64,000 nucleotides of DNA from Escherichia coli (GTDB lineage: Bacteria; Pseudomonadota; Gammaproteobacteria; Enterobacterales; Enterobacteriaceae), in the NCBI RefSeq assembly GCF_003334385.1, contig NZ_QOWN01000004.1, one strand, 5' to 3'. The stretch's first letter is position 1, and each line of letters starts with the position of its first letter. This document shows positions 54,900 through 55,640 of the stretch, piece by piece. A program made the position numbers and the translations under genes. The notes under the pieces were generated by a model. It was not told the DNA's origin, did not search any database, and saw only the letters and a list, made by a program, of their open reading frames with translations.

Positions 54900-55640
54900 A
54901 TGTTAGATCAAGTATGCCAGCTTGCACGGAATGCAGGCGATGCCATTATGCAGGTCTACGACGGGACGAAACCGATGGACGTCGTCAGCAAAGCGGACAA
55001 TTCTCCGGTAACGGCAGCGGATATTGCCGCTCACACCGTTATCATGGACGGTTTACGTACGCTGACACCGGATATTCCGGTCCTTTCTGAAGAAGATCCT
55101 CCCGGTTGGGAAGTCCGTCAGCACTGGCAGCGTTACTGGCTGGTAGACCCGCTGGATGGTACTAAAGAGTTTATTAAACGTAATGGCGAATTCACCGTTA
55201 ACATTGCGCTCATTGACCATGGCAAACCGATTTTAGGTGTGGTGTATGCGCCGGTAATGAACATAATGTACAGCGCGGCAGAAGGCAAGGCCTGGAAAGA
55301 AGAGTGCGGTGTGCGCAAGCAGATTCAGGTCCGCGATGCGCGCCCGCCGCTGGTGGTTATCAGCCGTTCCCATGCAGATGCGGAGCTGAAAGAGTATCTG
55401 CAACAGCTTGGCGAACATCAGACCACGTCCATCGGCTCTTCGCTGAAATTCTGCCTGGTGGCGGAAGGGCAGGCGCAGCTGTACCCGCGCTTCGGACCAA
55501 CGAATATTTGGGATACCGCCGCTGGTCATGCTGTGGCTGCAGCTGCCGGAGCGCACGTTCATGACTGGCAGGGTAAACCGCTGGATTACACTCCGCGCGA
55601 GTCGTTCCTGAATCCGGGATTCAGAGTGTCTATTTATTAA
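54900..55640 (+). CDS. cysQ: 3'(2'),5'-bisphosphate nucleotidase
   Basis: ORF track; 246 aa; inositol-monophosphatase fold motif WLVDPLDGT. Confidence 0.93.

Follow-up and report, generated by a model that had tools for sequence, protein, structure and literature searches.

A probably ancestral overlap of cysQ and ytfJ in Escherichia coli and the AT-rich ytfI islet that separates the two genes in K-12

The DNA analysed here is a stretch of 64,000 nucleotides of an Escherichia coli contig (NZ_QOWN01000004.1), referred to below as the window. Two of its genes, cysQ and ytfJ, converge and run into one another at their 3' ends. The features at their junction are:

54900..55640, plus strand: cysQ, predicted 3'(2'),5'-bisphosphate nucleotidase, 246 aa, ending ...FRVSIY, with the stop codon TAA at 55638..55640 (ORF list)
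55630..56187, minus strand: ytfJ, predicted YtfJ-family protein, 185 aa, ending ...LHKLINK, with the stop codon TAG at 55632..55630 (ORF list)
55630..55640, coding in both directions: tail-to-tail overlap of 11 bp, CTATTTATTAA (raw sequence)
55641..55644: empty insertion site of 4 bp, the counterpart of 1,225 bp in K-12 (blastn segment boundaries)
55608..55624, plus strand: terminator-like hairpin CTGAATC-CGG-GATTCAG, with a 7-bp stem and a 3-nt loop (pattern scan)

The two genes share 11 bp and therefore have no intergenic DNA between them; the convergent, overlapping arrangement described in the original prediction is confirmed by the ORF list and the raw sequence alike. Several complete E. 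coli genomes, E. coli B derivatives among them, match positions 54900..56200 (1,301 bp) at 100% identity, and the RefSeq annotation of one genome with identical sequence, E. coli B-ZidR, gives the same overlapping coordinates for cysQ and ytfJ. A 60-mer across the junction has 100% identity in BL21, and at this locus the window is E. coli of the B/BL21 sequence type. The cysQ gene is 100% identical to cysQ of B-ZidR (WP_000886900.1), and PF00459 (inositol monophosphatase-like) is recorded on the CysQ orthologue. By identity and family domain the product is confidently predicted to be the nucleotidase CysQ. The ytfJ product scores 306.8 bits against TIGR01626 (cut-off 151.1) over residues 1-183 of 185, a full-length match by which it is assigned to the YtfJ family (TIGR01626 / PF09695), and its N-terminus resembles a signal peptide. 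The GC content of the window shows no dip at the junction.

K-12 differs at this point. In the K-12 derivative J53, ytfI (939 nt, 312 aa) lies inside a gap of 1,212 bp with cysQ on one side and ytfJ on the other, and a blastn comparison of 40.7 kb of K-12 with the window places K-12 positions 20742..21966 in place of window positions 55641..55644, the two sequences being otherwise collinear across the locus. The prediction had placed a 312-aa ytfI between the two genes in K-12 and noted its apparent absence here, and both statements were correct: the window has 4 bp where K-12 has 1,225 bp. The case in which K-12 would have had the same overlapping arrangement did not hold, as its cysQ and ytfJ are 1,212 bp apart. 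From cysQ to ytfJ, the K-12 segment is made up of four parts:

Part 1: a hairpin with 21-nt arms, immediately 3' of the cysQ stop codon
Part 2: about 170 bp of very AT-rich DNA upstream of ytfI
Part 3: ytfI
Part 4: a perfect 10-bp GC-rich hairpin followed by a T-run, after ytfI

The GC content of this islet is 27-40%, compared with 50-60% in the cysQ and ytfJ flanks. The C-terminus of YtfJ also differs, reading ...LLQKLLK* in K-12 (184 aa) and ...LLHKLINK* in the window. K-12 and the window diverge by 0.2-4% per kb over the whole 40 kb; a local peak of divergence, as the mark of an old balanced polymorphism, was rejected because there is no maximum at the junction.

Elsewhere in the window, a second difference from K-12 is seen between rplI and ytfB, where about 9.4 kb (36403..45841) stand in place of about 1.1 kb of K-12 (yjfZ). 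The ORFs of this region include a TRAP transporter (DctP- and DctM-type), an FAD flavoprotein of the fumarate reductase/aspartate oxidase type, a CoA-transferase, an enoyl-CoA hydratase and an SDR reductase. A TetR-type regulator at 45573..46244 is transcribed divergently from them, and K-12 has only a truncated TetR pseudogene at its site.

The frequency of the two arrangements was determined in 5,426 complete E. coli genomes, 5,421 of them matching the query. The query aligned in one piece, with cysQ and ytfJ uninterrupted, in 3,801 genomes, and the K-12 ytfI segment was found in 1,623 (at least 80% of its length in 1,605). Carriers and uninterrupted genomes sum to the whole set and the locus is therefore essentially two-state, so that ytfI is a presence/absence polymorphism, as had been proposed. 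Carriers include K-12, O157:H7 and O55:H7, the latter two at 98.3-98.4% identity to K-12, and many clinical isolates at 96-97%; B, BL21, Nissle 1917 and O103 and O111 strains are among those without it. The junction 60-mer of the window is present at 95% identity or more in 3,795 complete E. coli genomes, and the empty alleles therefore represent one sequence type.

IS1 is also seen at this site. In ETEC1738 (locus L084, 3001..3930) an IS1 element occupies the position of ytfI, the islet is reduced to its first 164 bp, and YtfJ is without its C-terminus; this is a deletion of secondary origin, associated with the IS, in a strain that bears the islet. In another strain (H68, strain 2900), IS1 is inserted within the islet.

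To place these alleles in a wider context, the genomes were scanned for YtfJ with one genome per GTDB species, which gave 80 loci, a set retrieved without E. fergusonii, E. marmotae and E. ruysiae. In each locus cysQ, ytfJ and ytfI were located by tblastn and each gene was extended to its stop codon. A tail-to-tail overlap of cysQ and ytfJ, of 11, 7 or 4 bp, was present in 75 of the 80 species-representative loci of the Enterobacteriaceae:

Overlap of 11 bp, 40 loci: Escherichia whittamii and three other non-K-12-like Escherichia, Citrobacter, Salmonella enterica arizonae, Klebsiella, Raoultella and some Kosakonia
Overlap of 7 bp, 28 loci: Enterobacter, Lelliottia, Leclercia, Pluralibacter and Silvania
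Overlap of 4 bp, 6 loci: Kluyvera, Yokenella and Trabulsiella
Also overlapping, no length assigned: locus L027, in which the end of cysQ was mis-extended (raw value -11)

The junction sequences of the outgroups are collinear with the window and contain no indels, and tblastn found no ytfI outside Escherichia in the 80 species-representative loci. Being collinear and free of indels across the family, the overlap is therefore ancestral and ytfI an insertion; on these alignments the window is judged to keep the ancestral enterobacterial arrangement. Its recurrence in 3,795 E. coli genomes and in 75 of 80 species representatives means that the overlap is neither chance nor an artefact. The original prediction had offered either a K-12-lineage insertion or a deletion in this strain. 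The insertion is upheld, as the outgroups share the overlap and the insert is AT-rich; the deletion is not, and neither is the attribution to the K-12 lineage.

The empty E. coli allele has itself changed since. At 55638..55650 the TGAGCAACTTAT of other Escherichia has become TAATTAATTTAT through four clustered G/C-to-A/T changes; these turn the cysQ stop codon TGA into TAA and the YtfJ end ...LLNK into ...LINK. The TAATTAATTTAT form is also found in Escherichia sp. MOD1-EC7003, and the right junction of K-12 retains the GAGCAACTT form.

Divergent ytfI alleles were retrieved together with their flanks. All islet alleles examined lie between cysQ and ytfJ and have an identical left junction, TAA-ATTCAGATGGCAGAAACAG..., and right junction, ...TTATTTGAGCAACTTTTGCAG, and the same two hairpins are present in K-12 and in the alleles of loci L090, L087 and L006. 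The shared junctions and hairpins indicate one insertion event, and a single origin for the islet is accordingly the probable one. The divergence of the three alleles from K-12 is as follows:

L090: flank identity about 98%, islet identity 94%; flank dS 0.06, ytfI dS 0.13
L087: flank identity 95-96%, islet identity 85%; flank dS 0.13-0.20, ytfI dS 0.37
L006: flank identity 89%, islet identity 78% (77.6% by blastn); flank dS 0.59-0.66, ytfI dS 0.70

Locus L006 comes from a GTDB species representative labelled E. coli, whose distance from E. coli equals that of E. whittamii, and its YtfI has 69% protein identity to that of K-12. Other divergent alleles encode proteins with 78-89% identity to K-12 YtfI and have the same junctions. 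Islet divergence appears to track flank divergence, only faster, and this points to an insertion that would predate the split of these lineages. The islet is present in O157:H7 and in divergent Escherichia at the same junctions, and its insertion therefore probably predates the diversification of E. coli. In the closer comparisons the dS of ytfI is up to twice that of the flanks, an excess that may reflect an older coalescence or transfer between lineages instead of simple co-descent. Four species representatives of Escherichia lineages closer to E. coli than L006 (L003, L004, L005 and L007) are without the islet, so that an old origin requires either that the polymorphism endured for long or that the empty allele repeatedly replaced the islet. 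Probably the two alleles have either coexisted over a long period or been exchanged through recombination in the flanks.

With its patchy distribution within the species, its absence from the outgroup site and its foreign composition, the ytfI segment is very probably a horizontally acquired accessory islet. Its only ORF is ytfI, which has no family match, and no transposase or mobility gene was found in it; there are no terminal inverted repeats above the AT-rich background and no convincing target-site duplication, and a transposable element or IS insertion was rejected on these three counts. By eye, 8 of 12 positions of the right junction resemble the 12-bp overlap segment, which is not significant in AT-rich DNA, and a target-site duplication of the overlap segment in diverged AT-rich sequence is possible. 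No copy of ytfI was found in phage records. Four matches labelled as plasmids were rejected as true plasmids since the records are 0.66-4.9 Mb in size, and they may well be chromosomes under a wrong label or a large replicon derived from a chromosome.

Two other histories have to be weighed against an old insertion. In one, ytfI would be ancestral and a deletion of 1.2 kb in the lineage of the window would have fused the ends of cysQ and ytfJ and so created the overlap. The islet is indeed old enough to be common to a divergent Escherichia genome, some ancestor of the strain may have had it, and deletions at the locus do occur, as the IS1-associated loss of most of ytfI and the 3' end of ytfJ in ETEC1738 demonstrates. 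However, the window junction aligns base for base with those of Citrobacter, Klebsiella, Salmonella arizonae and other Escherichia, where the overlap is likewise 11 bp, and it is not credible that a random deletion would restore the outgroup arrangement. The empty E. coli alleles, moreover, have a single junction type, and no remnant of the islet was found in the window, either in its sequence or by blastn against K-12. The window junction TAATTAATTTAT is several substitutions apart from the K-12 right junction TGAGCAACTTTT and so did not arise by recent excision from a K-12-like allele; that K-12 retains the GAGCAACTT form at its right junction and the empty allele has TAATTAATTTAT likewise argues against recent excision. 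We regard the deletion as very improbable. The other history, a recent acquisition of ytfI specific to the K-12 lineage, would fit the AT-rich, H-NS-bound nature of the islet, which resembles recently gained DNA, and the fact that K-12 and B, both members of phylogroup A, differ at this site. It is contradicted by the occurrence of the segment in 1,623 complete genomes, O157:H7, O55:H7 and many at 96-97% identity among them, by alleles of 78-89% YtfI protein identity that occupy the same junctions, and by the L006 allele, at 69% protein identity, in a genome with flanks 89% identical to K-12. It can be considered extremely improbable. The account as a whole, in which the window has the ancestral overlap and K-12 and about 30% of E. 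coli have an old, horizontally acquired islet, is in our view highly likely.

The sequence of events may then have been as follows. An AT-rich islet of about 1.2 kb would have been inserted once, directly after the cysQ stop codon, as a self-contained module in which a hairpin is followed by some 170 bp of AT-rich DNA upstream of the orphan gene ytfI, then by ytfI itself and by a second, GC-rich hairpin with its T-run. The insertion would have pushed cysQ and ytfJ apart and altered the 3' end of ytfJ, so that a protein ending in ...HKLINK* or ...HKLLNK* came to end in ...QKLLK*. It would be older than the separation of E. coli from at least one divergent Escherichia lineage, and both the empty and the occupied allele would have been kept since then, presumably moving among lineages through homologous recombination within the conserved genes on either side.

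The protein encoded by the islet has few relatives. Homologues of YtfI were found in Escherichia and Shigella only, in 17 clusters, none of them below 69% identity (word-indexed search of 5.8 billion clusters). When 1.84 billion representatives were searched exhaustively with phmmer, the matches were fragments of YtfI, apart from one marginal match of 30% identity (E=8.4e-4), and neither search revealed relatives or a donor outside Escherichia/Shigella. YtfI had no Pfam match even at E<=10 and no NCBIfam match, and a PDB profile search gave nothing below E=0.8. A PADLOC assignment to Cas6b, which covered only 41 residues (E=8e-4), and the sole PHROG match, to a family of no assigned function (E=0.0017), were both treated as noise. 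AlphaFold2 modelling from an alignment of 8 sequences gave a mean pLDDT of 50 and a pTM of 0.35, and the model is unreliable. The ytfI reading frame is intact in all alleles, and its dN/dS is 0.27-0.41, compared with 0.01-0.11 for cysQ and ytfJ, suggesting that ytfI is a real but weakly constrained gene. The literature describes it as uncharacterised; it was among the clones conferring HOCl resistance in an ASKA over-expression screen (PMC8228696), and the ytfI region is a disputed ChIP-chip signal (PMC3870955).

Other cargo is found at the same junction. Counting the species representatives, 5 of 80 junctions are occupied, or 6 if the 71-bp gap of K. intermedia (L069) is included. The individual cases are:

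E. albertii NBRC 107761 (L008, 4792..5949): an AT-rich gene for a 385-aa pentapeptide-repeat protein in a 1,504-bp gap
Strain SCPM-O-B-7615, labelled E. coli (L083, 3852..5009): an AT-rich gene for a 385-aa pentapeptide-repeat protein at the cysQ/ytfJ junction
Citrobacter youngae ATCC 29220 (L044): a TIGR04222 membrane protein and a radical SAM/SPASM enzyme in a 2,120-bp gap
Kluyvera genomosp. 1 (L061, 4556..5608) and K. cryocrescens (L062): a DacA-like serine peptidase in a gap of about 905 bp
K. intermedia (L069): a gap of 71 bp

The pentapeptide-repeat protein weakly resembles type III effector families in their repeat region. The cysQ and ytfJ genes of SCPM-O-B-7615 are 99% identical to those of E. 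albertii and 86-88% to those of E. coli, and with such flanks the strain is probably a mislabelled E. albertii. The TIGR04222 protein of C. youngae has a Cys/Gly/Ser-rich tail of the GSSCGG type. On each side of the C. youngae insert lies one copy of a direct repeat that corresponds to about 35-40 bp at the 3' end of ytfJ (L044, 4519..4549 and 6638..6679); the copy on the cysQ side has kept the overlapping, ancestral end ...LLSK*, and the product of the full-length ytfJ terminates in ...LLAQ*, like that of Enterobacter. This looks like the integration of DNA carrying its own ytfJ end. The Kluyvera cargo resembles serine D-Ala-D-Ala carboxypeptidases, with weak matches to DacA, DacD and VanY-D.

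The range of cargo suggests that a tail-to-tail junction tolerates insertions, as is expected of a site that has no promoter to disrupt, and the cysQ/ytfJ junction is at most a weak hotspot. A stronger reading would make the overlap a permissive landing site for independent cassettes, with a ytfI polymorphism that arose before E. coli and has been kept by selection at about 30%; we consider this combination a possibility, and a doubtful one. If selection does keep the islet, YtfI could, for example, be conditionally useful, or the spreading of H-NS nucleated by the islet could alter the expression of cpdB, cysQ, ytfJ and ytfK.

With no intergenic space between the genes, each transcript must end inside the opposite gene, and the hairpin at 55608..55624 may serve as a terminator. 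It lies within the last 11 codons of cysQ, spanning those for L-N-P-G-F-R, with the rare codon AGA used for arginine, and its T-rich tail extends through both stop codons. The pattern scan detected the same hairpin in K-12. In other genera there is a different palindrome, CCCGG-CTT-CCGGG, located 4 nt further downstream than that of Escherichia, and the palindromy owes something to the Pro-Gly codons. When hairpin stability was compared with 300 synonymous recodings per species across the 80 loci, the median rank was 0.20, with a rank of 0.05 or lower in 4%. A single conserved structure was rejected, given registers 4 nt apart and a stability weakly above that of synonymous recodings, and a terminator role for the hairpin is no more than a possibility.

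These features bear on the possibility that the overlap itself is functional, with convergent transcription or the embedded hairpin coupling the expression of cysQ and ytfJ and the ytfI islet uncoupling it. An overlap of 11, 7 or 4 bp is retained across the family, a terminator-like hairpin with a T-rich tail is present, a palindrome occurs in the last cysQ codons of Escherichia and other genera alike, and the islet brings separate hairpins of its own, one after cysQ and one after ytfI, all of which would be in keeping with such a role. But the hairpin is only slightly more stable than its synonymous recodings, the 4-nt difference in register between Escherichia and the other genera means that it is not one conserved structure, termination 7-9 nt past the stem would precede the cysQ stop codon, and some 30% of E. 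coli manage without the overlap. Functional coupling is unlikely on this evidence.

The ytfI locus has appeared before as an example of a strain-specific insertion, in S10 Fig of Higashi et al. 2016 (PLoS Genet 12:e1005796; PMC4720273). According to that figure, K-12 has ytfI whereas SE11 and SE15 lack it, H-NS binds the K-12 insert and spreads to the adjoining genes, and in ChAP-seq data H-NS is on cpdB, cysQ, ytfJ and ytfK only where ytfI is present. Locus and polymorphism are the same as those described here, and the window is a further ytfI-less strain. The polymorphism was thus already known in substance, and the finding in the window is a correct rediscovery. As far as its text shows, that study concerns three strains and gives neither the direction, the frequency, the age nor the junctions of the insert; the present analysis supplies the direction in which the locus changed, how common the islet is in the population, the junctions that its alleles share, and evidence for an old rather than a K-12-lineage insertion.

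The significance of the locus beyond annotation is small. K-12 represents the derived state and the B/BL21 type the ancestral one, which matters when K-12 gene lists serve as a reference. The locus also illustrates that the 3' junction of core genes can host an H-NS-nucleating islet, with H-NS occupancy changed, according to the literature, on four neighbouring core genes, and ytfI is a genus-restricted orphan gene under weak purifying selection that has apparently persisted for longer than the species.

Convergent overlapping gene pairs are rarer in bacteria than same-strand overlaps and usually share only a few bases. The cysQ/ytfJ pair is typical in that each stop codon lies within the last codons of the other gene, with no intergenic terminator; it departs from such pairs in general in that its overlap is kept, in three length classes, across many genera of the Enterobacteriaceae. 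A general concept for chromosomes is that of integration hotspots between conserved core genes. The junction resembles these in receiving unrelated cargo in E. coli, E. albertii, Citrobacter youngae and Kluyvera, but its inserts measure only 0.9-2.1 kb and carry no integrase or tRNA. Small, AT-rich islets with orphan genes, silenced by H-NS, form a general class in E. coli, and the ytfI islet shares their properties: it is AT-rich, has a single gene and no mobility genes, is patchily distributed, evolves fast and is restricted to the genus. Unlike other members of this class, it sits exactly at the stop-codon overlap of two convergent core genes and, in contrast to recently acquired islets, it appears to be older than the species that carries it.
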